A stretch of 57,242 nt of DNA, the filler included, from Jimgerdemannia flammicorona (lineage: Eukaryota), in the NCBI GenBank assembly GCA_003990765.1. It is 2 parts of 2 records of this genome, joined end to end, with 100 filler letters (N's around TTAATTAATTAA, not from the genome) between each part and the next. Parts side by side here need not be neighbours in the genome. Positions count along the whole stretch, not along the records: positions 28,677 to 57,242 come from RBNJ01000551.1; 1 more part is not named here. One strand, written 5' to 3'. Shown here piece by piece: positions 3,748 to 57,242 of the stretch. The notes below the pieces were generated by a model, which had not been told where the DNA came from, ran no database searches, and saw only the letters and a program-made list of their open reading frames with translations. Each line of letters starts with the position of its first letter. Within the stretch, counting starts at the first letter, position 1. Both the position numbers and the translations under genes were made by a program.

Positions 3748-3778
3748 TTTGAAGAAATGTTGCAATAGAGACCCTAAT

Positions 3779-5695: not shown

Positions 5696-5777
5696 ATTGT
5701 TAGTCGTTGAATACCAAAAACGTTGTAAAAAGTATTGTCTGAGTCTTGTGTCACCCGAATATTACTGGTGAAAGGTG

Positions 5778-28576: not shown

Positions 28577-28676
28577 NNNNNNNNNNNNNNNNNNNNNNNN
28601 NNNNNNNNNNNNNNNNNNNNTTAATTAATTAANNNNNNNNNNNNNNNNNNNNNNNNNNNNNNNNNNNNNNNNNNNN
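28577..28676. other. Artificial assembly spacer N44-TTAATTAATTAA-N44
   Basis: Exactly 100 nt; the central 12-mer gives stop codons in all six frames. Confidence 0.97.
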
Positions 28677-31600
28677 AGCCTCGCCACCAGATATTCAAAA
28701 TGTCCAACAGCAACCATTCCCAATGGGCCACCTTGTCACCAACCCCGACCCGCCACCCTTCTTCAAAGACATGAACCCAGTGCCCAGCCAACCCAACCCA
28801 CATAGCCAAAGCCCAACTAAGGGTCAGTCATTCATCCCCAACCCCACCCACCAGTCTCTGGCGAAGCTCTCCCCATCTCCCCCCTCCCTCTCCCTCTATA
28901 GCATCCAGCCCCACCTGGTCCATAATACATCTCCAGAACTCCTCCAAAACCTCACATTCACCAAGCCAATGTTCAGGCATTTGTATCACTCCACCCTCCT
29001 GACCAATGTTGAAACAATCCTCACACTCGAATATCCCACCGGCCACCAAGTATCCTGACCAATAGTTCAACATCACATTCCTCCATAGGACCTACCACCA
29101 CACCACCCAGAACTTGGGGGGCAGCCACTGCCTCACCTATTTGCTCCAACACCAGAGGCCATTCCAATCCCACTCCTCACCAATTCCAACCCTCTGCCAG
29201 GCTTCTGGCTACAGGTCTCCACCCAGGCCTCGCAGATACTCCAGACCCTCGCCAAGCTGAAAGTTCTCCACCGGAATGCCACCCAGTAGAAGCCTGTCCC
29301 ACCACCACATCCGCAGGTCCCAAACCTCCTCAGCTTCATCACCTTGCCACCAAAGTCCAATTTTCTTAGCACCATCTACCACCCCCCACCAAAAGCCCAT
29401 AAACCACATCCTCCTGCTCCCCTCCATGGCCACCATTGCGAGCAAGTCACTGGAACCACCACATGGGGAGTACTGAACCTCCCACAATCTCTGCATGAGT
29501 GGCACCCACTCTCGACCCCAAAGCTCACTCGCCCTTCACAGCCACCAGGCTCTCAGACAAAGAAGCCGCTTAGTAAAGTCCACTAAACCCAGCCCACCTC
29601 TCTCCAAGGGCAGTGTGAGCACCTCCCAACCAACCTGGCTTCACTGCCCTCTCCAGATCCATGACCTTGCCATCTTCAACAGCCTCTTGACCACTCAGGC
29701 TGGAAAGTCCAAGTAATATCTAACATACCACAGCTTCGGCATCCAGTATACATTCAACACCATCACCCTCCCGGCTAGGGACATATGCCAGCCTCTCCAA
29801 TGTAGCAAAACATTACCCCACTCCAGAAGTTTATGGTCCCACCATGCCCAGGGAAGAAGAGATCCAAACACCGAGAAGTAGATCTCCAAGTAATATACCA
29901 GTTCACCAGCTGGTACCACTGTCCCAATGATATCGCCACCAACAATTCCAGTGCCCAGCACCAGTGTCTCACATTTGTGCCAGTTTGGCTTAGCACCAGA
30001 ACCCCTCTCATACTATTCCACAGTCCTCTGTAACTCTCTCACATCCACCAAGGAGCCCAGCCCGACCACCATATTATCAGTAAAGGCCCCCACCTTCCAG
30101 TTAACCCCTAAAATGTCCAAACCTCCAATCTGATACTGAATTCTGTCCAGTAGTGGCTCCAGAGAAAGGGCATACAAAATGGGCAACAAGGGGTCTCCTT
30201 GTAGTACCCCACATCTCAGGGGAAAGGTCACCCCTCTGTGGCCATTGATGACCAATGCCACCTGACTATCCTCCAAGAGGCTGATCAATGATCCTCGGAA
30301 CCCCGGAGGAGTACCAATCCACTTCAGCACACCCTCTAGCCATATTCTCCGCACTCTATCATAAGCCTTCTCTTGGTTCAGAAACACCAATCGGCCATCC
30401 ACCCCTACTGCCCGGGTACCTTCAATCACTCCATGAACCCAGGCTGTCCCATCTTGAATCAACTGACCACTGACAAACCCACACTGTTCTACACCAAGCA
30501 CCTGCTGGGTGATTCCTTGCAGTCTCAACACCAAAATTTTCATCACCAGTTTGCGGTCTATATCAAGAAGCATAATTGGCTACCAGTTCTTCCAGTCCTC
30601 TCGTCTCCCCTTATTCTTATAGAGCAAGGAGACTAGCCCTAAGCGCTGTCCCCCAATCCAAACACCAGACCAAAGAACTCTATTGCACATAGCCATCATT
30701 TCCTCAAGCACCTCACCTACCCCAGTCATCTTCTGTCAAAAATCCCAGGGAAGTTCATCCTCTCCCGGGGCTGTCCCCTTACTCGTCGAGGCCACAATCC
30801 TGCAAATTTCCTCACCACTCACTGGGTCCCCCAATGCCCCAAGTCCCAACGCAGGGTTTGGGTGCCAATCCCCCAGCTGCCTTTCAACATCCAGAGCATC
30901 CAATTCTCCTTCCTCCTCACTCCAAAGATGCTTCTACCGGGTTCGCAATAGTCCTAGAATTGCCGGAGTCCCCACCATCAGCTCGCCATCTGCATCCAAA
31001 ACTCCCTCCCACCGCTTCCTTGTTTGTCATGCTTGTAACAACTGTGACAGGAACCTAGTTGGCCTCTCTCCCTCCTCAAGCCCCTGCCACCACAGGCGGG
31101 CCACTATTTCCTACAACTGCTCCTTCTCCTCCCTTCGTAGCACCCCTTTAAGCTCCTCTACCTCCTGCCAGATCCTTACTATATGCCAATCAGTCACATC
31201 CCCATCCTCCAGCACACCTGCCCATCTTTCCATAAGTGCTGCCAGATGCCGTAAGGCCCACTACACCCACCGCCTGTGCTGGGTATATTTCTCTTTCCCA
31301 GCTTCCCTCCAATACCCCTGAGCATTTGCCTTCAGTCTTCTCCAGCAGTCCCCAATCGCCAGTCCTTGTTCCTGCCACCTGCCAATATTACCCACCACCT
31401 CTGCTTCCCAACCCTCCCACAATACCCTATCCTCTAACAAGGAAGAATTTAGCTGCCAATGTCCAGGCCCATCCTCATTTCCCCCAAACCTCCCTCCTCC
31501 AAGTAGCCCCCAGTGATCAGACCATAGATACCATACAACTTCCAGCCCCGACCAGACATCTGCTCCCCAACACTCCGCTGTTAGAACCCAATCAATCCTG

Positions 31601-32193
31601 GAGCCCAACCCTGCTGCTCAATGGGTGTACACCCACCGATCAGCCCAAAAATGTCTCTCCGAGTCCACTAGAGAACTCAACCTCTTCATCTCCAATCAGT
31701 CACCCAACCCACCACTCTCACCCCGCATGCCTCTCCCACCATCAGTTCTGTCCAACTTCTTATCCTGTACTATATTGAAGTCACCCCCCAAACAGTCCAG
31801 TCCAACTCCTCCCAATACACCAGCCTCATTTAATTGACAAATCCAATCCACCCTCTCCCCTCTCTCAGCTGGGCAGTAATAAGACCCAACCATCAGCAGG
31901 CCCCATCCAGGCCTCTTCCACACTCTCCACACCACCCAAGATGCCCAATGTCCAATGTCCCCAATGTCCCCCATCCCTTTCCAAACAAGAATACACACTT
32001 TCCCCCTCCAAACTGCTGCACCCCCCCATTTCTTAGTCCAATCCTGTAAGTCCACATCTGCCTCATAACGAACATCCTGCAATAAAAAGAGGTCTGCATC
32101 CAGTCTCTTAAGCTAACCGAAAAAATACTTCCTCCTAGCCACCCCCTGTAACCCATTAATATTCAGCTAGAATATCCTAGTTGTACTATTCAT
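28677..32193 (-). pseudogene. LINE ORF2 (endonuclease-RT-CCHC), disrupted
   Basis: ATG at 32193. Motifs LLQDVR, GGDFN, SRIDW, SDH, LNQEKAYDRV, QGDPL, FTDN and CEDC..HWLGEC. Confidence 0.9.
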
Positions 32194-32224
32194 AATGAAG
32201 AAATGTTGCAACCAAGACCCCAAC

Positions 32225-34133
32225 CTATAATTCCATGCTCATCTCATCTCCTGCCAGATCCAAGTGCCATTCAGCTTCCAAGTCACCTTCTGCAATATCC
32301 TGAGCATCCAGTGCCCCCAAGATTTCCTGACATTCCACCCTGTCCACTTCCTCCATATCCACCCGGTAGTCCAAGCAGACTGCATGCCACTTTGCCAGTC
32401 CCTTCCTTGAGTTCCACAAGAAAGTGCCCTGTCACTTGCAATCTTCCTAAGTTCCTCCTCCTGCTGACCATCAACTTGATATTCGACCAGGAGGACAGCT
32501 AGGATCTCATTCCTCATCTTCCTTGGCACCTCCTCCCCCTATAGAATCTCCTCCCAGTGCCTCTCCTCCATCACCTGGAAGTCCTCACCCCCTAGCTCTT
32601 CAGCCGCTACCCCTTCCAGGGTCTTCTACATCCACTTCTCCTCATCCACCACCTCTGCCACACCTTGAGCGATTTGTCCCCCATCTACCTCAGGGTCCAC
32701 CAGCATGCTCCTCCTTACTGACTCATCCCACTCTTCATCCGGCACATCCATCAGCTCCTCCTCCCCCTCTGCTCCATCCGGAACACTATACTGAGGGTGC
32801 ACACCCTCCCCCATTTCGGCATCTGCTTTCAAATTGCCCTCCCTCTCCTCCCCCACTCCAATCTGAGCCCCACCCTGGGCCCTCTCTCCCCCCTCAGCCC
32901 AGGCACTCTCCTGCAACCCTGCAACTCCCTCCCCTGAGCTTCCACCAGCCCTACTCCCACTCAACTTCGCCAACAGCTCCTTCTGGATCTGCCTCCCCTG
33001 CATCTTCTCCCAGGCCCCCTTCTCCATCTGGACCCTCTACCCATCCACCTCCCCCACTACTGTCCTGGCCTCAAACTCCTTCCAGGCCAATCTCCTCCTT
33101 GCAACTGCCCCTTCCAGATCCTCCAGAGCCTTCAACAGGTCCTCCTCCTCCTCCTGGGTCCCCTTCACCCTTGCGACCTTACACTCCACCAGTCCCCATC
33201 TCAACATTGCTGGCCAGTCCCTTGACTTCCCCGTATTCTTCTTCCCAGCCAGCCTCACCCTGACATCAACATCACCAGTTTGAAGCTCCATTCCCTCCCA
33301 GACCTTGAATCCAATATTGACAATATCGCCATACTCCTGGATTGCCACCACAACCAACTCCCTGGTCCTCTCCTTCGATATGGTAGGGAGATCCAACACT
33401 GTCAACTGCACTACTCATGGGTCCCAGCACATGCACCAGGCCATAGGGACTACAACCCCTCCAACCATCAACCCCTTCTCTATGGCTGCCAACAAGGCAT
33501 CTTCCTCCTCAAACCCCACCTCAACCCCTTCCTTTCCCCTCAAAAACTTCACCGACGCCGCTCCCTTAGCCTCCTGCACCACCAGCCCCAAAATCATCCT
33601 TGCCATCACTGCCAAGCCCCAGAAGCACATTGTGACCACAATTCTGACCTCGACTTCTTGAGTAATGGGGCCGACACCATGCCCATCACCCCATCTGCCA
33701 GGTCTCTGGGCCTCATGCCCCCGCCCAGTCCCAAATTGCCAACCACTATCACATCTGGATTTTTTGCCAGATCTCCAGTCACAGCCCCATCAACAGTCAC
33801 ATCTCCAGCCCCTACTTCCACTCCTCCCCTGCCACCTGAGACTCCCTTAGATGCACCTCCCTGTCCCCCAGTAGCAGCTGTCGATGCCATCCCCAGGCCC
33901 AGCCAACCATCAAGGCCTGAGGCCATCTTGCCCATTCTGACCTTGTCAGCAAAGGTCAACCTCTCCCCTCCTCTCTGCCTCAGCCTGTCCCTCCCTCCAC
34001 CACCAGGACCTCGGCTAGCCATCGAGGCCTCCAGCATCCCCAAACCATCTTCCCTCCTTCCCACCTGCTGCCAGCCAAAGGCACTGTCACCCCCCTGGCC
34101 AGTACGCTCACCAGTTCAATCATTGCCATCCAT
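32225..34133 (-). pseudogene. LINE ORF1, disrupted
   Basis: ATG at 34133; fragments are homologous to copy 1 ORF1 and end in EMSMEL*. Confidence 0.85.
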
Positions 34134-34215
34134 GTTGCTAGTCGCTAAATACTGAAAACATAGTAAAAAGTGTTGTCTGAGTCTTGTGTCACCCAAATGT
34201 TACTGGTGAAAGATG

Positions 34216-35651
34216 ATTATATAGGGTTTCATCTATCTGCTGATTTCATTAGAGTACTTCTTTTTTTGAATGAAGTCTGTCTCACTTGTTGCAGATATAG
34301 AGGTCAAATTGTCCTTATACATCAGGTTCAATTCTCTCCAGATTTTTAGATAGTTCAGGATAAATTCTAGTTCAGAGGTTGGGCTTTATATCAACTTGTA
34401 GGAATTCTTAAAAGAGTTTGTAGCAGGGTGAGAAAGCATCTTGAAGTAGAATTAGATTGTAAACTGCTACTACTAAGTTGTAAGAGAGTTACCTTGTTAG
34501 AGTAACTGTTATAGTTCTGGAAGGTTTTCTGAAAGTTCTAGATATTCTGAAAGATTATTTTCTTAAGGTCAAGATCAATTTCATATGGAGTACATTCTCT
34601 ATACTTATTGATTTTAAGATCAGGTTAACATCTCAACCAAAGTCCTTTTTCAGACTAGTTCTGGAGGTTCAGGATTTTTCATATTTCAGGAAGTTCAAGA
34701 AACTAAGACCAGCTTAGTTGAATCAGCATATCACTGTAGACAATACCCAATTAGGAAATTTCATGATAGAGTTAAGAGTGGGATCTAATGGGGAGTAGAT
34801 TTACTTAAGAGTGATTTGTGGGTTATTAAATAGGTTTATTCACTATTTATGATATTGCTATACTAGGAGTAGTTGTATAAAGGGATATTGTAAGAAAGTG
34901 TTCAGGAATTATATTTGAATTGTTCAAGTCTTCAAGTCTGAGATTCTGAGATCTGGGAGAGAGGGTAGTTATACTAGTAAAGGGCTATCTGAACTAGGCT
35001 AGATATGGATGTAGCACTTAGTACTTTGCTGAGTTGGAATGCAGTCATATAGTACAAGTGTGATCTGATATATCAAGAGATTGTCTGACTACTGAGTCAG
35101 TTTACAGTTATATTACATAAGACTAATCTAACTATACTATAACTGCTAAGCTGTCTATAAATTTAGATGCTGTCTGGATAGTCTTTGATGATATCACCAT
35201 CAATGACATTATCTCTGATGAAGTAGTTATCTAGGAAAAGTTGTTCACAGATTAATTCTCCTTATTTACTAAGATAATAATATATTAGAACTTTGTCACC
35301 ATTCTACAGAATAGTATTATCTGTCTTATATACTGGATAAGGAGTTGGTGAGTGAAGGAGAGGTACATCATCTTCACTTTTATCAGATTTGCTATCTGTA
35401 TACCTTCTATAGATAATGGTACTATAAGTTGTAGAGTTGTAGTATGCTGGTAGTTGTGCTTCATGTTGTTCATATTCTGGTGGTAGAGTTATTGGTTCAA
35501 TCTCAAGGATTGTTTGAAGGTATAGATTGTGTTCTCTAGTCTCTTCATTATAGTTGAAGTAATCAAGAGTGAACATAGATTGGTACTTGAGCTAGTGGTC
35601 ATTGTCCCAATAGGTCTCATAGGTAGTTATGAACTTTTGTAAGTTCATCAG
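34216..35651 (-). mobile_element. Family A LTR retrotransposon fragment A1 (partial LTR 34397-35651, PBS, leader)
   Basis: Reverse complement of ~36555-37895 and ~53235-54640. Confidence 0.85.
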
Positions 35652-38600
35652 TATAAGCACACAACCTCCAAGCCACTGAAATTACACATCACCCTCTGAA
35701 TGCCACTGAAATCACATGTGCCAGCTGAACAAATCTGGAAATCACCTACTTGATCATAAAGCTGAGTCAAACTGAAGTCACAAGCATACAAAGCTGAGTC
35801 AATATGAAGTTACAGAACATAAGATTTATACAAACAGAATCTTACCAATCAGGACCAAATATATATATACCAAGCACCAAGACATGTCAAAATAGAGAAC
35901 CAAAACAAACAACAACCACAACTTCTAAACATATACAAACATGACTACCAAGATCTATAACCATATCTGAACTGACATTTGGAATGCCATTGTCAACCAA
36001 GCCACACCCCTCTGCCCCTCATAAATATCCATAGTCTAGCACTTCTCTACTTTGTGGAAGTCCGATGGAATGCTCTGAATATACTTAGCGAGATATACTG
36101 AATTGGACAAATTTCAAGCTACTATCAGATCAGCTGCCTCTTAGAAGATATGGTCAAACACCACTATGATACAGATATCATACAGATGTCTCAACACTAG
36201 AAACTCATTGCCTGCAAACACTGAGAACTCTTTTATGAGTATAGCACCATTATTCCCCATTTCTGAGTTACTATCAGTGAAATGGTTACTACTCTATCCT
36301 ATGGTCAAATTGACAACATAATACAAGAACTCAACCACAAGTACCTCAAATATATTCAGACTATAGACAGAACCTTCTCGCACCCCAATGACCATATTCT
36401 GCAAATATCTCAAGTCAGATATGTAATGAAGAATGTCTATGATATAATCTGATTTGATGAGAATAAAGCAGAAGACAATGATCCCTCTGATGCCAACATA
36501 ACTGCAAGCCAAGGATCTCTGCCAACCCTGATCACTCTGCCAATCTTGCCAATAAACTTATAATAGTTCATAACCACCTATGAGACCTATTGAGACAATG
36601 ATCACTGGTATAAATAACAACCAGCATTCACCCCTGATTACTTCAACTATAATGAAGAGACAGGAGAATACAGCCTGTATCTCCAGACAACTCTCAAGAT
36701 TGAACCAACCACTCTACCACCCGAGTATGAGTGACATGAACCACAGCCACCAGCTTACTACAATTTCACAACTCATAGTGCTGTCAGCATATGAGACAGA
36801 TGATGCTATCCTGTAGAATGGTGACAAAGTTCTAATATATTACTACTTTAGTGAACAAGGAGAATTAATCCACAAACAACTCTTCCTAGATAACTACTTC
36901 ATCAGAGATGATACCATCAATGGTGATGTCATTGAAGACTAACCAGACAGTATCTAAATTTATAAATAGTTTAGCAGTCATAGTATAGTTAGATTAGCCT
37001 TGTATGATGTGACTGTGAACTGACTCAGCAGTCAGACAATCTCTTGACATGCCAGATCACATTTGTACTATATGACTGCATTCTGACTCAGTGAGACACT
37101 TAGTATTATACCCATATTCAGTATAGTCCAGATAGCCTCTTACTAGTATAAATACCCCCTCTCCCAGATCTCAGAATCTCAGCTTGAATACTTGAACAAT
37201 CTGAACACAACTCCTGAGCACTTCTCTACAATATCTCTTCACACAACTACTCCTAGTATAGCAATATCATGAATAGTGAATAAACCTATTTAATAACCCA
37301 CAAACTACTCTTAAGTAAATCTGCTCCCTGTTAGGTCCCACTCCTAACCCCATCATGAAATTTCCTAATTGGGTATTGTCTGCAGAAATATGCTAATTCA
37401 ACTAAGCTAGTCTTAGTTTCTTGAACTTCCTGAAATATGGAAAAATCCTGAACATCCAGAACTAGTCCAAAAAAGAACTTTGGTTGAGACATCAACCTGA
37501 TTTTGAAATCAATAAGCATAGAGAATGTACTCTATATGAAATTAATCTTGACTATAAGAAAACAGTCTTCCAGAATATCCAGAACTTCCAGAAAACCCTT
37601 CCAGAACTATGTAATAGTTACCCTAAAAAGCAATCCTCTTATAACTTGGTAGTAGCAGTTTATAATCCAATTCTGCTTCAAGACACTTCCTCACTCTGCT
37701 ATAAACCCTTCTGAGAATTCCTACAAGTTGGTATAAGCCCAACCTCTGAACTGGAATTTATCCTGAATCATCTGACAATCTGGAGAGAATTGAACCTGAT
37801 GTATAAGAATAATTTGACATCCACACCTGCAACAAGTGGGACAAACTTCATTTGAAGAAAGAAATACTCCAGTTAAATCAAAAAATAGGCAAAACTCTAT
37901 TCACTGAACTCCTTGCTCTACACCCAGCAAGTCAAGATGAAGAAGGTCTTATTGAAGCCTTCTTTACTCTTCTCAACAAGAGTTTTGTTAGCTCTACAAA
38001 TCCAAGTAACCTAGGACAACCATCAGTAGTCTTTCTAGCCTTAGTCCCTCATAAAGCCTAAGCCTCTGTAGCCAAGTGGCTCAACTCCACCAACTTTCAC
38101 CATACCAGGACCAAGACTGCATAATACTACTGATTCTAGAACAGCAAGGCCCACCATATTCTTAAAGAAGAAGCAAGAGAAATTCTTCATCAACTACCCA
38201 ACCCCAAACCAGAAGTAGGCCCTGCTACAGCTCTACCTAAACCTGAAACCAATACTGAACCAGAACTTGACTTTGAATTAAGTCCATCCAAAATCAGATA
38301 TACATATAACTGATTCTATCTACTTCAATACTGAGCAAACCCAACTATACAGGGACCAAACTGAAGAAAAGGAGGAGTATCTCAGTGAATTCAATCCTGG
38401 ATACACCACCAAAGGAGACACACCTCTATCAGGACAGAACATACCTATATAGCAACAGACACCTATTTATCAAGCCCTTACTCCAGACCCACAACTATTA
38501 CTCCAGCAACTTATACAGACTCAAAGAACACCCTCACACTCTACACTAGTACCTCAAGTAGTACCAGTAATATCACTACCAGCAGTCCAACCACCTCCAG

Positions 38601-38999: not shown

Positions 39000-39405
39000 G
39001 TCTGAACTTCCAAATTCCTTGACTTGTCTTGTTCCTTTAGTTAGTTCAGAGACTTCTTGTAACTGTGGAGTCTTGACCTTCATGAAGACTACTTGAGCAA
39101 TCTTCTGTCCTCTAATGATTTGGTATCATTCTATACTGCTGTTGTGTAAGATAACCTTGATTTCCTATATATCTTGGATCAATGATTTCTCCTTCCACAG
39201 TTATTCCTTGTCTGGCAAGTCCAGACCTTGAGGTCAGTTGGATGTAAGATCCTTGGGGTGGCTGTATGGCTAATTTAGTTCTGATTATGAAGGTTTTTCT
39301 GGGCTTGATAGCTTCATCCTTCAGACTGTGAAGATTATATTCTACATCCTCTGAGTGGGCTTTGGTTGGGGGTTTGACCTTGGGGTGCAGCAGGGCATAC
39401 TGGGC
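39000..39405 (-). pseudogene. dut: Retroelement dUTPase (family B)
   Basis: QPPQGSYIQLTSRSGLARQGITVEGEII-D..IKVILHN..GQKIAQVVF..RQVKEFGSS; trimeric dUTPase motifs 2-5. Confidence 0.88.
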
Positions 39406-40679
39406 AATATTCTTACTGAGTTCAGGCTTTCCTAAGGCTGAAGCTCCACTAACAGAGAGCCTCCAAGCTCTAAGGTTGAGGTGTGGCCATCTGGCTCCAG
39501 TAGAGGGATCTTAGAGATAGTTAATTCTCCTTTTTTTTATAGGGTCTAGGGCTTCTATGAAGTTGGTAGCATCTTCTGCCCATCCTTGGCAGGTTGTATA
39601 TCTGATGAGAGCTAGGATGTCTTCTCCTAAATCATAGATCTTAAGGATCCTTTTTCCTGGCTTTTTGATCTGACTTTTTTTGGATCTGGCTTCAGTTATC
39701 TTCTCTCTTCAAAATATAGATTGCAATATCATAACTGAGATGAATCTTCTGATGTCTGCAGTCTCAGCAGTTGGGATATCTTCTATAGTTGCAATATCCC
39801 ATTGCTCAGAAATAATGTTCCTGGTTATTGATCTCTTGTTGTCTTGAAAATTGGTACCCATCTTGGTCATAGGTGGGTAGAAGAGTAGATAAGGGATATA
39901 TTTCTGTCTAGGTGAAGAAGCCTTGTCCCCTGAATTGGCTTTGCAACTTGGTGGTAACTTCTTGGAAGATAGTTGACTGTGCAAGTGTGTTTGGGAGTTC
40001 TGGTCTCTGGGGTCTGTCTCTCCTATTGGTCTAGTAAATAGTACTGATAGCAGTAGTCTTGAGGAGAGTAGAAGATCATTTGGTGTGGACATCTTCCAAG
40101 CTGAAAAGCCTTTTCTTAGTGAGTTTCTTTCTTGGGGATAATGGTGATTATACTGAGTCCTTCTTCCATATTCCAAGAGTCATTGTCTTCAGGTGGTGTC
40201 CAGTGAGAATTATCCCAGGGAATGAGTTCAGAGACCTCTTCTTCTTTAAGTACTTCTTGTTCAGGAACTTCTTGGTCAGAAGTTTCTTCTTCCTCAGATA
40301 ATTCTTGACCCCAAATTACTTGTACTTCTGCAGCTTCAGTTGCAGGTAATTCTGGAACATATCTGCATTTCTTCTTCTTCTTTCTGCATTCTGGGCAGGC
40401 TGTGCCAGGTGATTTCTTTATTCCCATGATCTTAGAGGAATGCTTGGGACACTTGTATCTCTTGAGGCAGGTAGGACATCCTTTGATTTCTCCTGCAATG
40501 GCTCCAATAGTGATGGGGATAGTGTTTTCTACCCACACATTGTCTTCTGGTCTGTCATCCACCAGGTTAATTTGGAGATTGAGTCTGGGATCATTTCTAT
40601 CTTCAGATTCTTCTTCTTCTTCTGTAGTAGACTCCTCACTGCTGACATATTCTTCCTAAATAGTGACCTTCTTCTTCTT

Positions 40680-42954: not shown

Positions 42955-43020
<66 letters not shown>

Positions 43021-43042
43021 GTTACTTGGACTCTGTCTTTAT

Positions 43043-46000
43043 TACCAGTCTGTGAATAAGTATACAATATCACCACCTACTATCCAATCCCCATTGGGGA
43101 GTCCCTCCCCACCCCTTCATAAATAAAGATTACCCTCTCACCAACTACTCCAACTCTCCCACCACTCTGTCTACAGATTTTCTCTACCAAGTGATGTCTC
43201 TGACTCCCCTGCAGCCCCCAACCAAGCCATCAGCCTGTCAAGGTGTCTTCCATAAGACTCTGCCACTGTGACAACTGGCTCCTCAAGCTCTGTCACCTCC
43301 TATTCTCAAAAAAAAATAGCCAGTGACCAGCCAGCCTAACCCAAATAGCCAATGCCCAATCTAAGGTAATCTACTTCTTTCCTACCCCTCCTACCAATTG
43401 ATCCCTCAAGTCCTCCCACCTCCCCCGTACTTCATCTCTCCTACGTCTCACCCCCAAGTGGTCCCCAATGACCTGCCAAAAGTCTCTCAATACCTTGCCC
43501 TCTCCTAGCCAATGTTCTGGCATCTGTATAAAGCCCCCTTCCTGCCCTACATTGTGGTACTCCTTATAGTCAAAGCAACCCCCTATGATAAGGTGCCCTG
43601 AGCAGAAGTTGAGCATTACATTCCTCCTCAGCATACACCACCAGACCACCCAGTACTTCAGTGGCATCCATTTTTGTACTGTGGTACTCCAGATCCAAAC
43701 ACCATGCCAGTCCCACTCTTCTCTAATTCCAACTCCTTGCCAACTGCTAGGCCACAGATCCTGGCCTGGTCTCCTCTGATATTCTATTCTATCACCAACG
43801 TCGAACTCAAGTAAAGACACACCACCCAGCAGTATGCCATCCCATCTCCACATCACTAGGTCCCAAGCCTTCTCCCTCTTATTCCCCTGCCAGCGAATAC
43901 CAATGTGGTGTATCCCCTCCACTATCTCTCACCAGAAACCTCTATATTGCAATTGTGCAGTGTTCTGAAGTCCAACCAATGTGAGAAGATCACCAGTTGA
44001 GCCTCTCAATGATGACTGCCTCTCTCAGACCTTCTGCAGCAGGGGAACCCAACCCCCTCCTTGCAACTCCACCACCCTCTTAAGTCACCATACTCTCAAG
44101 CAGTATAGTCATTTGGGAAAGTCCACCAGTCCAAGACCCTCTCTTGCCACTGGTAGGGACAAGGTCTCCCAACCAATCTGACTCTGTCTGCCAGCCCAAA
44201 TCCATCTCTTGGTCACCTTCACCAATCTCTTCACCACCCAGACCAAGAAGTCCAGATGATAAGCCAAATACCACAGCTTCGGTAGCCAATATATATTTAA
44301 AATCAAGACCTATTCCACCAGAGAAAAGTGTCTTCCCCCCCAACCCTACAGGTCCTTCTCCTAAATTCCAATTTGCTGCTCCCACCAAAGCCTGGGCAGA
44401 ACTGACCCATAGACTGACAAATAGATGCCCAAGTACTGCACTGCCTCACCAGTGGGGACAATTGTTCCTATAACTTCTCCTTCCACCAGACCATTACCTA
44501 GTACCATTGTTTCACACTTGTGCTAATTCAGCTTCACCCCAGAGTTCTCCTTATATCACTCCACTATCTTCTTGAGCTCCTTGACATTAGCAATTGATCC
44601 CAAACCAACCACTATATCATCCACAAAGGCCCCAACTTTCCACTCAATGCTATAGATAGAGAGCCCCACTATCCTCTGCCTAATTCTGTCCATTAGGAGT
44701 TCCAGGGAAAGAGCATACAAGATGGGGGACAGTGGGTCCCCCTGGGGCAGCCCTCTACTCAGAGGGAATACTACCCCTCTATACCCATTACATATGAGTG
44801 CAGCCCTACTCTCTTTCAGTAGGCTGATCATTGCTGACCAAAACTGGATCAGAACCCCCATTCTATTCAATACTTTCACCAGTCAGACATATTGCACCCA
44901 GTCATAAGCCTTCTCTTGGTCCAAGAAGACTAGTTACCCATCTAGTCCACATGCTCTAGCCCCTTCAATAACTCCATGTACCCAGGCTGTGCCATCTCTA
45001 ATGAGCCGACCACCCACAAATTCCTTCTGCTCAACCCCTATAACTTGCTGAGCTACCTTCTGTAGCCTTGTGACCACCACTTTAGTTACCAACTTTCTGT
45101 CCATATCTAGCAACATTATTGGCTGCCAGTTCTTCCAATCCTCTCATCTTCCTTTGTTCTTATAAAGCAGCATCACCAGCCCAAGATCCTGCTCCCCCAC
45201 CCATCTCCCTGTCTGCAATATAGAGTCACACAATGCTGTCAACTCTTCCATCACACCTGGGACTCCAACCATTCACTTCCAGAAGTCCCAGGGTAGGCCA
45301 TCCTCCCCAGGTGCTGTATCTGAGGCTGTCGCAGCAAGAACCTGGTGGATCTCATCCTCCTTTACAAGTATTACCAGGTCACCTAGTCCCGCAACTTGTG
45401 GTGGACACCAATTCTCCAATATTCAGTCAATGTCAGTAGCATCTGCCCCACTCTCCTCCTCACTCCACAATCCACTCTAGTGCTCCCAATGAATTGAATC
45501 GAATCAAATTTGGCCCAAACTTGATTTGATTTGATCGAATCAAGGGTTCAATTCGATTCGATTCAAATTGAATCAAAGGTCCAATTCGATTTGAAGTTCA
45601 ATTCGAACCTTAATTTTCAAAATATAATAACTCGACGAAAACTCATCCAGATTTAACACATTTTAGCTTGTTAGATTCACCATATTAATGTGATTCTAAC
45701 AAGCTAAAGTACATTAGATTTGGATGAGTTTATGCTGAGTTATTGCATATTGAAAATTAGGGTTTGAATTAGACCCTCAATTTGATTCAACTTTTGATTT
45801 GATTCAAATTGATTCAAATTGAAAAATATCCAATTTGATTTGACTTATTTAACCCTCAATTCAATTTGATTCGAATTGATTTGACTCATTTGTGAGCACT
45901 AATCCACTCCATCGCTCCTTCAGTGATCTAAGAATATCCTGTACACTATGCACTAGTATACCATCCAAGTCAAGTATCCCTTCCCACCATTGCTGTACCC

Positions 46001-47166
46001 TTCTCGCCCTAAGGATCCTCATGAGAAACTTGGAAGGCCTCTCCCCTTCCTCTAGCCCCTGCCAATGAAGCCATACCACTAAGCTTTGCACCCTTGCCTC
46101 TTCCTCTTCCTGCAACACCTGTTGTAGTTCCCCAACCTCCATCTTCACCCTCATTACTCTCCAATCTTCTTCTCCCTCCACCATTGCCAGTCTCAGCCAC
46201 TCCTTTAGAAGCCTAGCCAATCTAGTAGAAGCCCAGTGCACTCACTGCCATCACTGCTTCCCTGCCACCTTGCCAGCCTCACTCCAGTATATCCTGGTCA
46301 TCTCTTTCATCCTCATCCACTGAACCCCAATTGAGGCACCTTTCTGCTGCCAGTTCTCCACCCTCAGCTGAATGTCTTTAGCCCACTCTTCCTACCAGGA
46401 CTCATCATCTAACAAGGAGGAATTTAGGCACCAATGTCCAGGCCCATCCCCACTTCCCCCAAAGCACCCCTGTCCCAAAAGGCCCCAGTGATCTGACCAT
46501 GGGCACCATTCCACCTCCAGCAACTTCCAAATATCTTGGCCCCAACAGTTGGCCATCAGAACCCAGTCAATCCTTGTCCTGAGGCCTCCAGCCCAATGCA
46601 TATACCCTCCTATCTCCCCAGTACTCCCTGCCAGTATCTACCAGTACTCTTAGTCTTTCAACTTTCTCCCACATCACCAGCCCCCCACTCCTGCTCTCAG
46701 CCCCCCATCCTCCATCAGTTCTATCCATCTGTATATCCTGAACCATATTGAAATCTCCCCCCAGCATATCCACTCCAGCCTCTGCCAGGATCCCACTCTC
46801 CTGGAGACCCTTCACCCAATCTACACACTCCCCCCTTATGGCAGGGTAGTAACAGAAGCCAACTGTAACTGGCTCCCAGCCTGCATGAATCCATTCACCC
46901 CAGACCAGCCTCTCCCCCCAGCTCCTCACATCTCTTATCTCCCCTCTGCCTTTCCGAACCAGAATCCTGACCTTGCCATTCCAAATTACTATGCCACCTC
47001 ATTTCTTTGTCCATTCCATCCTATCAGAATCATTCTCACACCTGATATCCTGCAAGAGAAAGAGATTGGCCTCCAATCCTTTCAGCCAAATAAAAATGTT
47101 CCTATGTCTAACAGCACTCTGTAGCCCACTCACATTCAAAGAAAAAATGTTAGTTGTACTGTTTAT
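43043..47166 (-). pseudogene. LINE ORF2, disrupted and interrupted by a MITE
   Basis: Motifs LLQDIR, GGDFN, TRIDW, SDH, GLPQGDPLSP and FVDD. Ends GDIVYLFTDW* with the stop overlapping AATAAA. Confidence 0.9.
45478..45901. mobile_element. hAT-type MITE, 424 bp
   Basis: TIRs TAGTGCTCCCAA / TTGTGAGCACTA and a perfect 8-bp TSD ATCCACTC (45470-45477, 45902-45909). Subterminal TTCGA/TTTGA repeats and a central foldback. Confidence 0.92.
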
Positions 47167-47196
47167 AATGAAATACAATTTATTACCAGTTGATCT

Positions 47197-49221
47197 CTAC
47201 TGCTCCATGCTCATCTCCTCCTGTGCTGTGTCCAGATTATGTTCTGCCATCACCTTCTCCTCTTCAGCCCTCTGAGCCTCCAATCCAGCCAACAGCTCAT
47301 TTATCTCCCCATCCGCCTTCTCCTCAAACTCCTCCCAGTACTCAATGCAAGCCTCCTGCCAAAGCTGCAATCCATGATACTTGTTCCAACAGTACTCAGC
47401 CCTCTCCCCAGTGACAACTATCATCTCCGCCTCCTGCTCCTTATCCACCTCATACCCTTCCTCCTCCAGATACACCACAAGAATTTCCGCCTTCAGTGCT
47501 ATCATCACTCCATCCCCCTGCAAAATCCACATCCAGTGCTCATCACCCATCACTCATAAGTCCACCTCTCCCAACTCTTCTGCCACCAGGTTATTCATCA
47601 TCCTGCACATCCAAAGAAGGTTCCCCACCTCCTTCCCTCCAGGGGTTGCTGGCCTCCCTCCATCCAGCATTGTGGTGTTGGCTCCAGCACTCACAGCCTC
47701 ATCCCACATCTCTGGGACATCCACCAGTTCCTCCTCCCCAGCTACCACTACATGTCCCCTGTCCATCACCTCTGGGACATCGAATTTCACCTGATGGGTC
47801 CCCAGCATTGTCACATCCTCCACCATCTTGTTTCTGGAAGCTGGGCCTCACCTGATAAGAGGAGAAGGAGTGGGGGAATCCTCTCAGACCTCATCCCAAA
47901 CCTCCAAGGTGCCATCATCATATGGGTCAATAATCTTCACCTCCTTCACCTTCCCTGTCTCCTCTCCAGCATTCCCACTCCTCTTGTCAGTCCAGATACT
48001 CGCTTTGGCCCCTTCCACACCCATCATCTTGCTTATATCCTCCTGTGGTCTGTTCCCCAGTTTAGCCAGCAGATCCTTCTGTCTCTTATATCCCTGAGCC
48101 CTTTCCCACTGCACCTTGTTCACTCGAATCCTCTTTCCATCCACCACCTCCAGGTGTGTTGACTCCACAAAAGCCTTCTAAGCCTTGGCTCACCATTCTA
48201 TAGCACCATCCAATTCTTCCAGCACTTCCAATAAATCCTCTTCCTCCTTTTCACTTCCTTTCACCCTCGTCACCTTATACAAGATCACTCCCCAGACCAT
48301 CACCGAAGGCCAATTCCTTGCCTTCCCAGTAGCTTCTTTCCCAGCCAGCTGAATCCTCACATCCACATCCCCAGTCCTGAGTAAGGTCCCTTCCCAGACC
48401 CTGAAGCTGATATCCACTACCTCTCCATACTCTACCATAACATCCTCAACTCTCTTTCTCATCTCCATCACTGTCACTGTGGGCACTCCTTTCATCAGCA
48501 GTTGGACCACCCTCGGATCTCATTTCAGACACCTCGCCATCGGAACACACACCTTCCCAACCACCAACCCAATCTTCAATGCCTCCTCCAGCAGCTCAGC
48601 CTCCTCAAAACCCACCTCCACACCCTCCAGTCCCTTCAAAAACTTCATTGACATGGCTCCTGCCACCTACTTAGTGATAAGCCCTGGTACCATTTTCACC
48701 GTCACCATTAAGCCCTAGAAGCACAGTGTAACCATAAATGCTAAGATTGATTTTTTGAGTAATGAGGCCACTACTAGGCCCATTATACCATCCACCAAAT
48801 TCCCTTGTCTTCCAAGCCTCAGCTGCTCAGCCTCACCAACAGCCATCACATCTGGATTTTTTTCCAGATTAGCAGTCCCATTGCCATCAGCAGTCACACT
48901 CCTCCCAGCCACTACTCCCCTAGCTCCACTACCCCCCTTTTCAAGGGCTACTCCCCCATGCACCACTACCTTCTTAGTCTCCTTGCCCCTCCTCAGCCAG
49001 CCCTCCAGCCCTAATGTCTGCTGCCTCCCCTTCACCATCTCCACAAAGCTCGCTCTCTCAGATCCTTGTCCACCACTAATACCTCCACCTCTTCCATGTC
49101 TTCCCACCAGCAGCCCCCTCATGTCCCCCCCCAGGCTCGGGCCCCTCCCCACCTGCTGCCATTCGAAAGCACTTGGGCCACCCTGCCTAGTATATACCTC
49201 AGATTGCCTGTCGGTCGCCAT
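47197..49221 (-). pseudogene. LINE ORF1, disrupted
   Basis: Track fragments 48715-49221, 48190-48510, 47884-48168, 47554-47826 and 47197-47553 lie in one frame and end in EMSMEQ*. Confidence 0.88.
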
Positions 49222-50649: not shown

Positions 50650-51900
50650 TTTCTGACTATCTGGTTATTTATATGTTTTTCTGTAGCAATGGTTGCTGGT
50701 TACTATACTATGCTAATATTTATGTCACTCAGTTAGATTGAGATTACTATATCTTCATGGTTTGTCATAGTATCCTCTTTGCATTTTCTAGAAATTATTT
50801 CAGGATTTATACTTTTTCTTAAATTATTATCATTTATCTCTTTAGTAATTATTTCTGTTCTTTAGACTATTAGAATAATATGCTCTAATAATAACTTATC
50901 CTAGAGATTATTACTCATAGGTAATTATAGAGTTATTCTTATTTATAAATCTTTTCTGATAATTAATCTGATATAGTATTAAAGAAGTATGAAACTCTTG
51001 CTCTATTTATTGTTTACTCTTATTAATTATATTCTACTTTTATAATATTTAAAAGAGTCTCTAGTCTTATTATAAAGGCTTCTGGATCTTCTTTTCTATC
51101 ATTATAGAATTAGATATTCTTGAGCTTAGTTCTGACTTCAACAATATGGGCAGAACTGCAGAACTGTTAAATTATTAGCTTCTTTAGGCCTATGATAGCT
51201 AGATAGACTTTATAGTTAGAATAATCATCACTTTTATCACTTGTATCAATTTCAGTATAGATTTTTCAAATGAGAGAATATAATAAAAAATTATATTATT
51301 ACTGGATAGATATATCTATAAAATTAATATAGAGATCTTTAATTTTATAGTACTTATTATTGGTGAGAATATTGGCTAAATTACATATAATAGTCATTTT
51401 ATCTATTATTATAGTAGTTAGTATCAACTTATCTAATAAATACTATTACTTAGTCTACTTTATCTTCAAATAGTATAAGTTGAAGACCTTTTATAGGTTT
51501 GTTTATTTTGATATTAAGATAAAGAACTTGGATAAGAATAGCTACTTGATCAGCTAGAGCTGTTTTCTTTTTATTGTAGATATTATTTAATTATCTTTAT
51601 TATCTAAGTGATAGAGTAGTAGTAATCTTTCTTTAAATACTATTATCTCAGAAGTAGTATAATATATAGTTATTCTTCTATAATATTACTGAGATAGATA
51701 AATTTGGTAACTAGTCTATAGGTTAGTAGTCTTGATGAGGTTATTATTAAAACTTTTATAATAATTTTCAGTAAACTTGATATTCTTAGTACTAGATTTA
51801 TAATAGTACTGAGATCACTAGTATCTGACTTAGATATTTCTTTGATTATACTTCTAAGTCAGAATAATATATTTAGAACTTTGTTAGATTCAGTAGTTTT
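50650..51900 (-). pseudogene. Highly degenerate gag-like remnant related to family A
   Basis: LADQVAILIQ..FEDKVD*VIVFIR*VDTNY resembles family A gag (..FNGTAQEVQSFISIVDTNF). Very TpA-rich. Confidence 0.45.
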
Positions 51901-51904: not shown

Positions 51905-52369
51905 TATTTTATTTTATTTTTTATTTTATTTTATTTTTTTTAATAGATCCAAAGTTCCATGGATTTTATTAGAAGAGAATCTAGACTATATAGGCTGAAA
52001 CTCTCCCCTACTACTCCCTGAGTACTACTCTTATTAATCTAGACTAGCTATTATCCAGTAGCTTAATTATACCAGGTACAGAAGAGTATTGTTGCCTATA
52101 CCTTATTCTGTATACTATACTCTCCCTACTATTAAGGGAGAACAACCATATACCCACAACTGAGACATATATCTGAAGTCCCAACATATATATAAGGCCA
52201 TACTTAAGCTGAATAGAATAGTCTCTACCACTCTAAGAAGAATGACAGACAAAGAAAAACTCCCATCAAAGTACAGAACAATAGATAGGTTCTGATTCTC
52301 TCAGATGAGATAAGTAAGGACTTATATATGGGACAAGAGGAGACCTTTAATATCTCACTACTCAAGCCT
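51905..52369 (-). mobile_element. Possible 3' end of another decayed LINE with an (AATAA)n tail
   Basis: (TTATT)n tract at 51905-51941 and a CLSC motif at ~52153-52168 on the minus strand. Weak support. Confidence 0.3.
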
Positions 52370-54465
52370 TGTAAGCATACAACCTCCAAGCTACTGAAAT
52401 TACACATGACCTCTAAACAAATCTGGAAATCACCTGCTCAGTTAAAAAGCTGAGTCAAACTGAAGTCATAGTATACAAAGCTGAGTCAACACAAAGTCAT
52501 GAAATATAATTCATATAAACAGAATCTTACTAATCAGGACTAAATGCATATATACTAAGCACTGAGATATGACAAAACAAAGAACTAAAACAAACAACAA
52601 CTACAACTTCTGAATATACATAAACATGACCACTGAGATCTATAACCACATCTGCACTGACATTTGGAATGTTATTGTCAACCGAGCTACACCCCCTCTG
52701 CCCCTCATAAATATCCATAGTCTAGCATCTCTCTACTTTGTGGAAGCCCAATAGAATGCCCTGAATATGCTTAGCAAGGCCAACTGAATCAGACAAATCT
52801 CAAGCTACTACCAGATCAGCTGCCTCCTAGAAGATATAGTCAAACACTACTATGATATGGACATTACCTAGATGTCTCAATACTAGAAACTCATTGCCTG
52901 CAAATACCAAGAACTCTTTTACAAGTATAGCACCATTATTTCCTGCCTCTGAGTTACTACTACCAAAATGGTTACTACTCTATCTTATGGTCAAATCAAT
53001 GACATGATACAAAAACTCAACTACAAGTACCTTGAGTATGTCCAGACTACAGACAGAATCTTCCCACACCCCAATGACCATATCCTGCAAATGCCTCAAG
53101 TCAGATATACTATAAAGGATGTCTATGATATAATCTAGTTTGATAAAGATAAAGCAGAAGACAATAATCCCTCTAATGCTGATATGACCTCTAGCCAAGA
53201 ATCTCTACCAACCCTGATCACTCTGCCAACCTTGCCAATAAACTTACAACAGTTCATAACTACCTATGAGACCTATTGGGACAATGACCACTGGCATGAA
53301 TACCAACCTGCATTCACCCCCGATTACTTCAACTATAATAAAGAGACTGGAGAATACAACCTATACCTCCAGACAACCCTTGAGATTGAACCAACTACTC
53401 CACCATCTGAGTACAAGTGATATGAACCATAGCTGCCAGCTTACTACAACCCCATGACTCATAGTGCTATAACCTATAGAAGATATGCAGATAGTGAATT
53501 CGATGAAAGCGAAGATAATTCACCCCTCCTTCACCCACCAATACCTTATCCAGCATATGAGACAGATGATGCTATCCTGTGGGATAGTGATGAAGTCCCA
53601 ATATATTATTACCTCAGTGAACAAGGAGAAGTAATCCATGAACTACTCTTCCTAGATGACTACTTTATCAGAGATAATACCATTGATAGTGATGTCATCA
53701 AAGACTACCCAGACAGTGTCTAAAAATAGCTTAGCAGTCATAGTATAGTTAGATTAGCCTTGTATGATGTAACTGTAAACTGACTCAGCAGTCAGACAAT
53801 CTCTTGACATATCAGATCACACTTATACTATGTGACTGTATTCTGACTCTAAGTGCTATATCCATATTCAGTATAGTCCAGATAGCCCCTCACTAGTATA
53901 AATACCCCCTCTCCCAGACCTCAGAATCTCAGATCCAGACACCCAAGAATACTTCTGAATACTTCCCCACAATATCTCTTTATACAACTACTCCTAGTAT
54001 AGTAATATTATAAATAGTAAATAAACCTATTTAATAACCCATAAATCACTCTTAAGTAAATCCACTCCCCATTAGGTCTCACTCCTAATCCCATCACAAA
54101 ATTTCCTAATTGGGTATTGTCTGCAGCAATATACCAATTCAACTAAGCTGGTCTTAGTTTCTTGAACTTTCTGAAATACAGAAAATCCTGAATATCCAGA
54201 ACTAGTCCAAAAAAGGACTTTGGTTGAGATGTCAACCTGATCTTGAAATCAATAAGTGTAGAGGATGTACTCTATATGAAATTGACCTTGACCTTAAGAA
54301 AATAGTCTTCCAGAATATCCAGAACTTCCAGAAAACCCTTCCAGAACTACATAATGGTTACCCTAAAAAGCAACCCTCTTATAACTTAGTAGCAGCAGTT
54401 TACAATCTAATTCCACTTCAAGATGCTTCCTCATCTCACTACAAACTCCTCTGCAAATTCTTACA
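52370..54465 (+). repeat. 2096-bp LTR of family A
   Basis: Perfect 6-bp terminal inverted repeat; TATAAATACCCC at ~53897 and AATAAA at ~54020; three copies in the window. Confidence 0.88.
52569..53723 (+). pseudogene. LTR-embedded accessory ORF (384 aa reconstructed), family A
   Basis: One frame from ATG 52569 to TAA 53723, including track ORFs 53184 and 53454. Nine internal stops, all TGA/TAG; several read TGG/CAG in copy A2. Confidence 0.82.
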
Positions 54466-54489
54466 AGTTGGTATAAAGCCCAACCTCTG

Positions 54490-56430
54490 AACTGGAATTT
54501 ATCCTGAACCATCTGACAATCTGAAGAGAATTGAACCTGATGTACAAGGACAATTTGACCTCCATACCTATAACAAGTGGGACAAACTTCACTTAAAGAA
54601 AGAAGTACTCTGATTAAATCAGCAGATAGGTAAAACCCTATTTACTGAACTCCTTGCTCTACACCCAGCAAGTCAAGACAAAGAAGGTCTTATAGAAGTC
54701 TTCTTTACTCTTCTCAACAAGAGTTTTGTCAGCTCTACAAATCCAAGTGACTTAGGACAACCATCAGCAGTCTTTCTAGTCTTAGTCTCTCACAAAGCCC
54801 AAGCCTCTGTAGCCAAGTGGCTCAACTCTATCAACTTTCACTACACTAGGACCAAGACCATGTTATACTACTAATTCCAGAACAGTAAGGCCTGCTATAT
54901 TCTTAAAGAAGAAGTAAGAGAAACCCTTTACCAACTATCTGACCCTGAACCAGAAGCAGGCCCAGCTACAGCTCTATCTGAACCAGAAACCAATACTAAA
55001 CCAGAACTTGACTTTGAATTAAGTCTATCCAAAATCAGATATATAACTAATTCTGTCTACTTTGATGCCAAGCAAACCCAACTACATGAGGACCAAACTG
55101 AAGAGGAGGAGGAGTATCTTAGTGAATTTGATCCCAGATATACCACTGAAGGAGATGTACCTCTATCAGGACAGAATACACCAACACAGTAACAAATAGC
55201 TATCTATCAAGCCCTTACTCCAGATCCACAACTATTACTCCAGCAACTTACACAGACTCAAAGAACCCCATCACACTCTGCACTAGTATCTCAAGTAGTA
55301 TCAGTAACACCACTATCAGTAGTCCAACCACCTCTAGTAAACAATATGGTGAACCAATAGATTCTAGATCTCACAGCTCAGGTAGTCATAATAGCAGCAA
55401 CTATTACTACCTTAGCTGAACAGACCTGACCTACTAAAAATCTGAACCTATCTACCTTCAATGATACTACACAAGAAGTCCAAAACTTCATTAGTATAGT
55501 TGACACCAACTTCAAAGTCAATCAATAGACCAATAAGTGAGTTTCTGACCACCTTCTGACAAACAACCAAGACCACACTCTAGAACAACTCTTTGCTATC
55601 ACTATAGCCTATGTCTGCTGAGTTGTTACATTCTTCTGAGGACCTGCTGAAGAATGGTGGTGAACCCTTCCTGAGAAATCCCTTACATGGGATACCTGAC
55701 CTACAGTAGTTACCCAAAATGCAGCAAACAATACCCCAGGATATGGAGCCCATCCTGCAGCTCCTGGACTGAAATAACTAATAATTGCTCAATATCACAG
55801 TAAAATCATAATTGCTGAATCTTAAGTATAACTCTGCAACCTCAAATTTGATGTATATAGTAAGGAAGAATTCGAAACTTTCTATATAAAACTTGAGTCA
55901 CTCCTGAACACTGTTGGCCTAGAATACATTGCCAATGACAAAGCATGAAATGGTACAAGAGCAGACTATCTATTTGATGCCCTGCCTAAATAGCTTACCA
56001 GAAAAATCCAAGAACAAGGCTGCCCAGTTGGTTGTGACCACCAACAATGGTACCTAGCAAGAATCAAGACCATGGTCAAGTAAATTCTAACAGCTGGACC
56101 AATTCTACCCTAAAGACAATTCAACAACAAGGAAAAGACTTGGACCAAGAAAGAAGAACCCAAGCATGAAGCATCCCAAACTCCCTCAACATCTACCTCA
56201 TGGATACCCAGAAATCATGAACCCACCCAGCTGAGTACCTTCAAAAAACTCACTAAAGGAGAAAGGAATGAACTTTGAAGAAGTGGAGCATGCTTCTATT
56301 GCTGAAAGACAGGATACATGGCCAGTGCCTGCCCTAACTGAAAACCCTGAACAGTGACATGAGCAACTGTTACTACTCTATACTACATACCTCAATAACC
56401 TGACTACCAGAACACTGGATTTTGTTAAGT
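54490..56430 (+). pseudogene. gag: Gag of family A with a C-terminal CCHC knuckle; 5' end approximate
   Basis: STFNDTTQEVQNFISIVD..GPAEEWW..; CFYC*KTGYMASAC at 56291-56332. Confidence 0.75.
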
Positions 56431-56830
56431 TAAGACAAACTGCTAAACTCCAATCAAAGGAAGTCATAAGGCAGCTGGATATGACCTACATATATGTAGC
56501 CAAAGAAGCTACAGTTTCCAACTGAGAAGTCAAGCAAGTCTACACAGGAATCAGCATCCAAATCCCTGAAGGACATATAGAAAGAATATGCTATCACAGC
56601 AGCCTAGTACTGAAAGAACTTTCAGTAGAAGGAGGAGTCATTGATGAAGATTACACAGGCAAAATTATTGTCCTCATCTGAAACCATAGTTGGACACCTT
56701 TCAAGATCTCCATAGATTTCTGTATTGCCCAGATCCTATTTGAAAAAATTGAGTTAATCCTGACAGTCAAAGAAGTCCCTGAACTACTGTCCACCATCCA
56801 AGAATTCAAAGGATTTGGCTCATCAAACAA
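56416..56830 (+). pseudogene. dut: Retroelement dUTPase (family A)
   Basis: AAGYDL, YTGISIQIPEG, HSSL, VEGGVIDEDYTGKI, IAQILF, KGFGSS; all five dUTPase motifs. Confidence 0.92.
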
Positions 56831-56893
56831 GGCCCCAGCTAGTGCTCCGCAAACCCGACCCGATTAACCCGAAACCCGACCCGTAAAACAGCC

Positions 56894-57082
56894 AACCCGG
56901 AATTAGACGTCACCCGTCTTTAACCCAACCCGGAATTATACGTCACCCGTCTTTAACCCGACCCGGAATTATACGTCACCCGTCTTTAACCCGACCCAGA
57001 ATTGTACGTCACCCGTCTTTAACCCAACCCGGAATAATACGTCACCCGTCTTTAACCCGACCTGGAAATGTATGTCACCCGA
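56894..57082 (+). repeat. 33-bp tandem repeat (acccggaattatacgtcacccgtctttaacccg), ~5.7 units
   Basis: Units start at 56894, 56927, 56960, 56993, 57026 and 57059. Confidence 0.92.
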
Positions 57083-57107
57083 CCTGTTATTTACCCTTAA
57101 CCCAAAC

Positions 57108-57172
57108 CTGAACCCGACCCCTGAACCCGACCCTGAACCCGACCCCTGAACCCGACCCTGAACCCGACCCTC
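57108..57172 (+). repeat. 13-14 bp tandem repeat ctgaacccgaccc(c), ~5 units
   Basis: Directly visible. Confidence 0.9.
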
Positions 57173-57242
57173 TGAACTCTGCTCTGAAAAAATGATTCGG
57201 AAAATATTTGGATAATATTCAGAGTAATTGAAAGTGAAAAAT

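Follow-up and report, generated by a model that had tools for sequence, protein, structure and literature searches.

The window, that is, the whole stretch of DNA analysed here, comprises 57,242 nucleotides (filler included) of Jimgerdemannia flammicorona (assembly GCA_003990765.1), presented as two parts joined end to end. Close to its right-hand end there is a unit of 2.1 kb that begins with TGTAAG (52370-52375), finishes with CTTACA (54460-54465) and contains a long reading frame interrupted by stop codons. This copy of the unit, called A1, is followed by a leader, a gag-like frame and a dUTPase domain up to the end of the window. Two other copies, A2 and A3, are present, A3 being cut on one side by A2 and on the other by a LINE. 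The coordinates of these features are collected in Table 1.

Table 1. Position of the accessory ORF, of the 2.1-kb unit that contains it and of the adjoining features of the element.
Feature	Positions	Strand	Basis or remarks
Copy A1, 2.1-kb 5'-terminal unit (candidate 5' LTR), TGTAAG...CTTACA	52370-54465	+	homology with A2 and A3
Two TGAGTCA motifs (52451 and 52482), tandem duplication of about 31 bp 5' of the ORF	52451-52488	+	sequence
Decayed accessory ORF, 365 codons plus TAA, 8 internal TGA/TAG stops	52626-53723	+	homology, copies, simulations
TGACTCA (53781) and TATA box TATAAATA (53897), candidate promoter of the element transcript	53781-53904	+	kept in A2, nearly kept in A3
AATAAA, candidate poly(A) signal	54020-54025	+	kept in A1, A2 and A3
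Decayed gag-like frame with CCHC-like knuckle at its end	54467-56332	+	by eye
PBS-like site TTGGTATAAAGCCCAACC, two bases past CTTACA	54468-54485	+	almost unchanged across the three copies
dUTPase domain of the element	56490-56825	+	PF00692, E 5.5e-18, 65.4 bits
Copy A2 of the unit	35652-37725	+	leader and gag continue to 38918
Copy A3, final 1.23 kb of the unit with 180 bp of leader	34218-35648	-	unit part 35648-34397

The plus-strand frame 52569-53723 had been described in the first-pass annotation as 385 codons broken only by nine TGA or TAG stops, and both translation and simulation agree with this description. There are four TGA and five TAG codons before a terminal TAA, and the remaining two sense frames over the same positions contain 19 and 46 stops. 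When the same 1155 bases were simulated with a first-order Markov model, nine stops or fewer were obtained in none of 5000 sequences (simulated mean 29.3) and a TAA-free frame in one of 5000. With just 10 stops in the codon-aligned antisense frame, stop counts by themselves do not tell which strand is coding. The true start is likely to be the ATG at 52626, in which case the stop at codon 15, the first of the nine, falls 5' of the gene. The ORF starts 256 bp inside the 5' terminus of the element and ends 174 bp before the TATA box and 297 bp before the AATAAA signal. Its terminal TAA is kept in A1, A2 and A3.

Intact relatives of this gene exist. When 1.84 billion representative proteins were scanned in full with HMMER, using the window frame (P0001) as query, exactly two homologues were obtained. 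P0002, of 247 aa, aligns with query residues 134-384 (64% identity, E 4e-99) and P0003, of 128 aa, with residues 20-147 (70% identity, E 5.5e-49), so that they jointly span residues 20-384. Both proteins are stop-free, are encoded by metagenome contigs of 998 and 1180 bases, respectively, the latter with about 800 bases 5' of the ATG, and are the sole members of their clusters. The first Met of P0003 coincides with the ATG at 52626, and P0002 ends at the TAA that A1, A2 and A3 have in common. The alignment to these relatives needs just two in-frame gaps of 2 residues, in agreement with the earlier statement that the frame has no frameshift. Related loci were also sought in metagenome, viral and genome contigs, and none was found.

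The relatives also tell what the stop codons of A1 used to be. The first-pass annotation had regarded them as decayed CGA, CAG or TGG codons, some of them still being read as sense codons in A2. At all eight A1 stops covered by P0002 or P0003 the residue is indeed W (one), R (two) or Q (five), and three of the nine stop codons are TGG, CAG and CAG in A2. Over the 361 residues that can be compared, 235 are identical, 60 others are accounted for by C>T or G>A changes in the decayed A1 and 66 differ in other ways. Since intact relatives share the start, the end and a W, R or Q at the stops, the gene at 52626-53723 is real in its family, and it is dead in this window. We therefore regard the frame as an accessory gene of about 365 aa, real and lineage-restricted, of which this copy has decayed by transitions. 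An alternative is that the frame is non-coding, being open by chance or as the mirror of an antisense frame in repeat DNA rich in A and poor in G. This would agree with the similar number of stops in the sense (9) and codon-aligned antisense (10) frames, with a poor AF2 model (mean pLDDT 30) and with the fact that no protein family was matched. However, a non-coding frame is extremely improbable, since so few stops never arose in the 5000 simulations, relatives that are 64-70% identical stay open for 247 and 128 residues, and both the ATG at the start and the TAA at the end are kept.

The homology between A1 and A2 begins at base 1-3 of the unit, and the homology of A2 and A3 to A1 extends beyond 54465 into the leader. 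A1 and A2 show 283 differences over 1994 aligned bases, 260 of which are transitions, and the ORF of A2 has two deletions, of 1 bp and 80 bp. The observed/expected CpG ratio is 0.01-0.25 in repeat segments versus 0.79 in the gene-like region at 11-19 kb. The decay is of the deamination type found in methylated repeats, CpG loss and a RIP-like process being indistinguishable as its cause. Among the ORF codons with a single difference between A1 and A2, 38 differences are synonymous and 63 non-synonymous (the neutral synonymous share is 0.33), meaning that both copies have drifted about neutrally since their death. This near-neutrality of the dead copies A1 and A2 gives no evidence of selection and is uninformative about active copies. 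Nine of the 14 ORF transversions between A1 and A2 are at third codon positions, which is a weak hint of earlier constraint.

The gag of A2 ends abruptly at 38918/38919, where it meets the truncated pol side of a minus-strand element. Since neither side of this junction is an element terminus, it would seem to result from deletion, rearrangement or misassembly rather than from an insertion.

Downstream of the A1 unit, one frame is protein-like for about 1.9 kb. This gag-like frame gave no gag match in a Pfam scan, and its CCHC-like knuckle (56291-56332, recognized by eye) carries Y in place of H. Just past the dUTPase there is a 33-base tandem repeat (56892-57081, 5.8 copies) that is read in frame as an 11-residue repeat, next to which comes a tandem unit of 12-13 bases (57093-57177). 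The window ends past these repeats and before any PR, RT or IN, so that gag followed by dUTPase is the visible order. The accessory ORF has a GC skew of -0.27 and an AT skew of +0.14, and the corresponding values for gag are -0.21 and +0.20. Two host-like ORFs show GC skews of +0.01 and -0.01. This likeness to gag, and not to the host ORFs, argues for a long residence of the ORF on the sense strand of the element. The best explanation is that the ORF belongs to a Ty3/gypsy-like LTR retrotransposon provided with a CCHC gag and a dUTPase.

Other repeats share the window with this element. A second, related dUTPase-bearing gypsy-like family has left minus-strand relics with dUTPase-like ORFs (39112-39510 and about 27763-28143), and a gag relic of this family (51029-51587, minus strand) adjoins A1. 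A recognisable copy of the accessory ORF was found in none of the second-family relics. Three LINE-like copies lie on the minus strand (250-5777, 28683-34215 and 42988-49000), with endonuclease- and RT-like ORFs detected by eye. Read on the plus strand, they have an extreme strand bias (C 0.35-0.39 and G about 0.14, with a GC content of about 0.5), and a long T run at about 42900 fits a poly(A) tail. Two runs of 44 N (28577-28620 and 28633-28676) are placed beside the 3' end of a LINE copy, and the order of the pieces may be unreliable there. The sole CpG-normal part of the window contains three copies of a small ORF, of about 176-183 aa, that start with MGNIFSRR (11447-11970 and 12201-12706 on the plus strand, 13350-13877 on the minus strand) and are mutually 73-79% identical in DNA. 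For the ORF at 13350-13877, no homologue was found at E <=0.001 among proteins of near length, and there was no usable Atlas match.

In the first-pass annotation the ORF was located in the U3 region of a 2.1-kb LTR. The TGTAAG and CTTACA bounds and the PBS-like site are present in the sequence as it described, the LTR label being an interpretation of them. The unit has TG...CA termini with a short inverted repeat, other copies ending in CCTACA. After CTTACA come AG and then TTGGTATAAAGCC, a TGG (54469-54471) lying three bases past CTTACA. CTTACA occurs four times within 4.9 kb of A1, so the terminal hexamers by themselves are weak evidence. No tRNA genes were found within the window, nor any Rfam match in 52000-57242. 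The TATA box, the AATAAA signal and the TGG site follow one another in the order expected for U3, R, U5 and PBS, and the earlier placement of a sense-strand ORF 5' of the first two agrees with both position and strand composition. Since the ORF lies near the 5' terminus and precedes TATA and AATAAA, the simplest architecture is that of a gene in the U3 of a 2.1-kb LTR.

The boundaries of the copies bear on the same question. A1 and A2 begin at the identical base in unrelated flanks, which are a minus-strand gag relic of the related family in the case of A1 and the interior of A3 in that of A2. This left boundary, 52370, is defined by one A1/A2 homology breakpoint and by a fall-off in depth. 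No pol domain was found 5' of A1 on the plus strand. A tandem arrangement, in which A1 would be the 3' LTR of the A2 element, was rejected because the sequence upstream of A1 has no pol domains and carries instead the minus-strand related gag relic. All three copies in the window are 5' ends with a common leader, and neither a 3' nor a solo LTR is among them; A1 runs off the window end, and A2 and A3 are truncated. The accessory-gene reading of the first-pass annotation is thus upheld in one part, a genuine sense-strand gene of the element, as indicated by the relatives and the skew. Its other part, a copy of the 2.1-kb unit at the second end of the element, was not seen, the three copies being all 5'. 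We infer the LTR status of the unit, the placement of the ORF being plausible but unproven; taken as a whole, the U3 of a 2.1-kb LTR is the best explanation, and our confidence in it is evenly balanced.

The abundance of the different regions was studied in Logan contigs of four runs at 80% likeness, X1 and X4 being DNA-like runs and X3 and X5 RNA only by guess. These depths are neither copy numbers nor a ranking. As means over bins, the ORF part, the last 700 bp of the unit and the internal region had depths of 653, 1848 and 474 in X1, and of 44, 158 and 26 in X4. The ORF part is thus 1.4 (X1) and 1.65 (X4) times as deep as the internal region, and the last 700 bp 3.9 and 6.0 times, whereas a model with two LTRs leads to the expectation that the ORF part should be at least 2 times the internal region. 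Since contig depth is a poor measure of copy number, this result calls for caution but does not refute the LTR reading. Depths at single points are very noisy, ranging from 13 to 700 within one part. Within an LTR it is normally U3 that diverges most rapidly, and such divergence would let fewer contigs pass the 80% cut and lower the depth of the ORF part.

The stretch 53770-54381, which comprises TATA, AATAAA and the beginning of the putative U5, is far more abundant in contigs than its neighbours, with bin depths of up to 4040 (X3) and 2586 (X1). In X3 and X5 there are loose ends with varied continuations at 54381, and not at 54465, and the internal region is without cover. This stretch could be a conserved R-U5 core common to other families or a separate high-copy repeat. 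The pair TGTAACT/TATAACT at about 53768 and 54380 was considered as the target-site duplication of an inserted high-copy unit and was dropped, because matches of this kind are expected by chance once transitions are allowed.

In another reading, the LTR would comprise only the last 700 bp or so of the unit, from roughly 53761 or 53774 to 54465, the ORF being then a 3'-internal accessory gene, or one embedded in the LTR in some copies. Two alternative plus-strand priming sites could generate long and short forms, and the copies in the window would then represent either the long form or the outcome of recombination or tandem arrangement. The excess of the last 700 bp over the internal region, much greater than that of the ORF part, points in this direction, and so do the TGTA/TGTAA motifs at 53761, 53768 and 53774 and the fact that about 700 bp is a more usual length for an LTR. 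However, there is no purine run or polypurine tract directly 5' of 53761-53774, which argues against a short LTR starting there. Moreover, the precise left end at 52370 is common to A1 and A2 and the depth drops there too, the sequence upstream of A1 is not pol-like, and the noise of the point depths and the fast divergence of U3 weaken the depth argument itself. An LTR restricted to the last 700 bp appears, on balance, rather unlikely.

The 1.4 kb that carry the ORF might, alternatively, be a captured host gene or a separate adjoining repeat, and not an adapted gene of the element. Its relatives are limited to two metagenome fragments, and a host-like gene in the window is equally orphan, so a host donor would also have gone undetected. 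In addition, a 9601-base contig from organism A matches a core of 297 bases alone (53238-53534), at about 81%, with unlike flanks. This contig belongs to run X3 (depth 369), the match being near the contig start, and the core codes for the best-conserved stretch of the protein. Against such an origin, the strand-asymmetric composition of the ORF is that of gag and differs from host ORFs, the ORF runs without a break into the TATA region in the three copies and in a bridging X3 contig (53686-53933), and in X1 the ORF, the last 700 bp and the internal region are covered jointly by thousands of contigs. An origin by capture from the host, or as an adjoining repeat, is quite improbable, and a gene of the element located in the U3 of the long LTR continues to be the preferred reading.

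The composition of P0002 bears out the acidic, Tyr/Pro-rich C-terminal half that had been noticed in the decayed frame: its pI is 4.05, and its 247 residues include 46 D+E versus 10 K+R, 23 Y, 24 P and 13 F+W. None of P0001, P0002 and P0003 had a significant Pfam match (the top one, RAMP, had an E of 0.073, below the cut-off), a PDB profile search gave no relative (best E 0.43), and in the ESM Atlas there was no usable feature match, the structural TM being <=0.30. The ESM Atlas model of P0002 has a pLDDT of 0.39. The structural comparison that had been suggested was not fruitful, since the AF2 model built on a three-sequence alignment (window frame, P0002 and P0003) reached a mean pLDDT of 30.4 and was unusable, and no fold or family match was obtained. 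With low confidence, this model predicts six helices within residues 22-160, beyond which there is little structure.

Acidic, aromatic-rich tails are typical of activation domains. As a speculation, the N-terminal half of the protein is probably helical and the C-terminal half, very acidic and rich in Tyr, Pro and aromatic residues, probably disordered. Taking together this composition, the weak model and the lack of a family or fold match, we speculate that the protein may serve the element in regulation, as an adaptor or a transactivator-like factor, and is not an enzyme. The tandem TGAGTCA motifs upstream of the ORF, which we take to be AP-1/Gcn4-type sites, are possibly an enhancer or promoter for it.

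The textbook example of an ORF inside U3 is the sag gene of MMTV. The ORF region of the MMTV 3' LTR is mentioned in PMC2118998. Under the LTR reading, the window ORF would resemble sag in being a sense ORF of about 1 kb located wholly in a long LTR, 5' of the LTR promoter, and present in both LTRs. There is, however, no sequence relation between them, Pfam being blank for the window frame and its intact relatives; the host is not a vertebrate, no env was seen in this gypsy-like element, and its acidic accessory protein is probably disordered. More generally, Pfam and PDB profiles revealed no homology to any known LTR-encoded protein family. HIV nef and foamy virus bel/bet overlap U3 and start upstream of the 3' LTR, and the foamy virus Tas protein is an element-encoded transactivator with an acidic activation region. 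These are also accessory genes of the 3' end that reach U3, and Tas is a precedent for a transactivator, but the window ORF lies entirely within the unit and has no homology to them.

To our knowledge, LTR-overlapping ORFs such as MMTV sag and HIV nef are not a standard feature of Ty3/gypsy elements. In a limited literature search, no gypsy-type element with an ORF inside its LTR was found. Orphan extra genes are, nevertheless, carried by gypsy-type elements, such as brtn, the extra ORF of Botrytis BcGypsy1/Boty (bioRxiv 10.1101/2021.04.13.439636), the "add. ORF" of fungal chromoviruses (PMC2864245) and the extra ORFs of bdelloid elements (PMC5408684). The window ORF is like them in this respect, and differs in that the relevant parts of these descriptions do not place those ORFs inside an LTR. 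Similarly, a dUTPase domain located downstream of gag, at the N-terminus of Pol, appears in PosPlaTy3-3 of Postia placenta and in elements of Phanerochaete chrysosporium and Tuber melanosporum (PMC2864245). The element of the window has the same order, gag and then dUTPase, whereas an LTR-embedded ORF is not described for those fungal elements in the corresponding part of that article.

If the ORF is located in U3, it would be copied to both ends of the element at each reverse transcription. Its transcript could be either the 3' portion of the genomic RNA or the product of a separate TGAGTCA-bearing promoter situated upstream of the gene in every LTR. The duplication of the gene at each transposition and its survival in solo LTRs, which the first-pass annotation had proposed, hold only if the LTR reading holds. 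The fullest version of this proposal, is a gypsy-type element whose U3 carries a conserved orphan gene with its own promoter that encodes an acidic transactivator or adaptor, and whose long and short LTRs coexist through alternative plus-strand priming. Each LTR, including solo LTRs, would in that case be a gene complete in itself. In this full form the proposal is a long shot.

Even on a cautious reading, the gene defines a new orphan protein family that has been seen in three places only, the window and two metagenome contigs. The retroelement to which this family is linked carries a dUTPase and is abundant in soil samples, and natural intact copies of the gene exist. If the LTR reading fails, it would be one more orphan accessory ORF. 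If that reading is true, the gene would be a retrotransposon counterpart of MMTV sag, and solo LTRs could leave protein-coding genes scattered through the genome. Accessory genes are the divide between complex retroviruses and simple retroelements.
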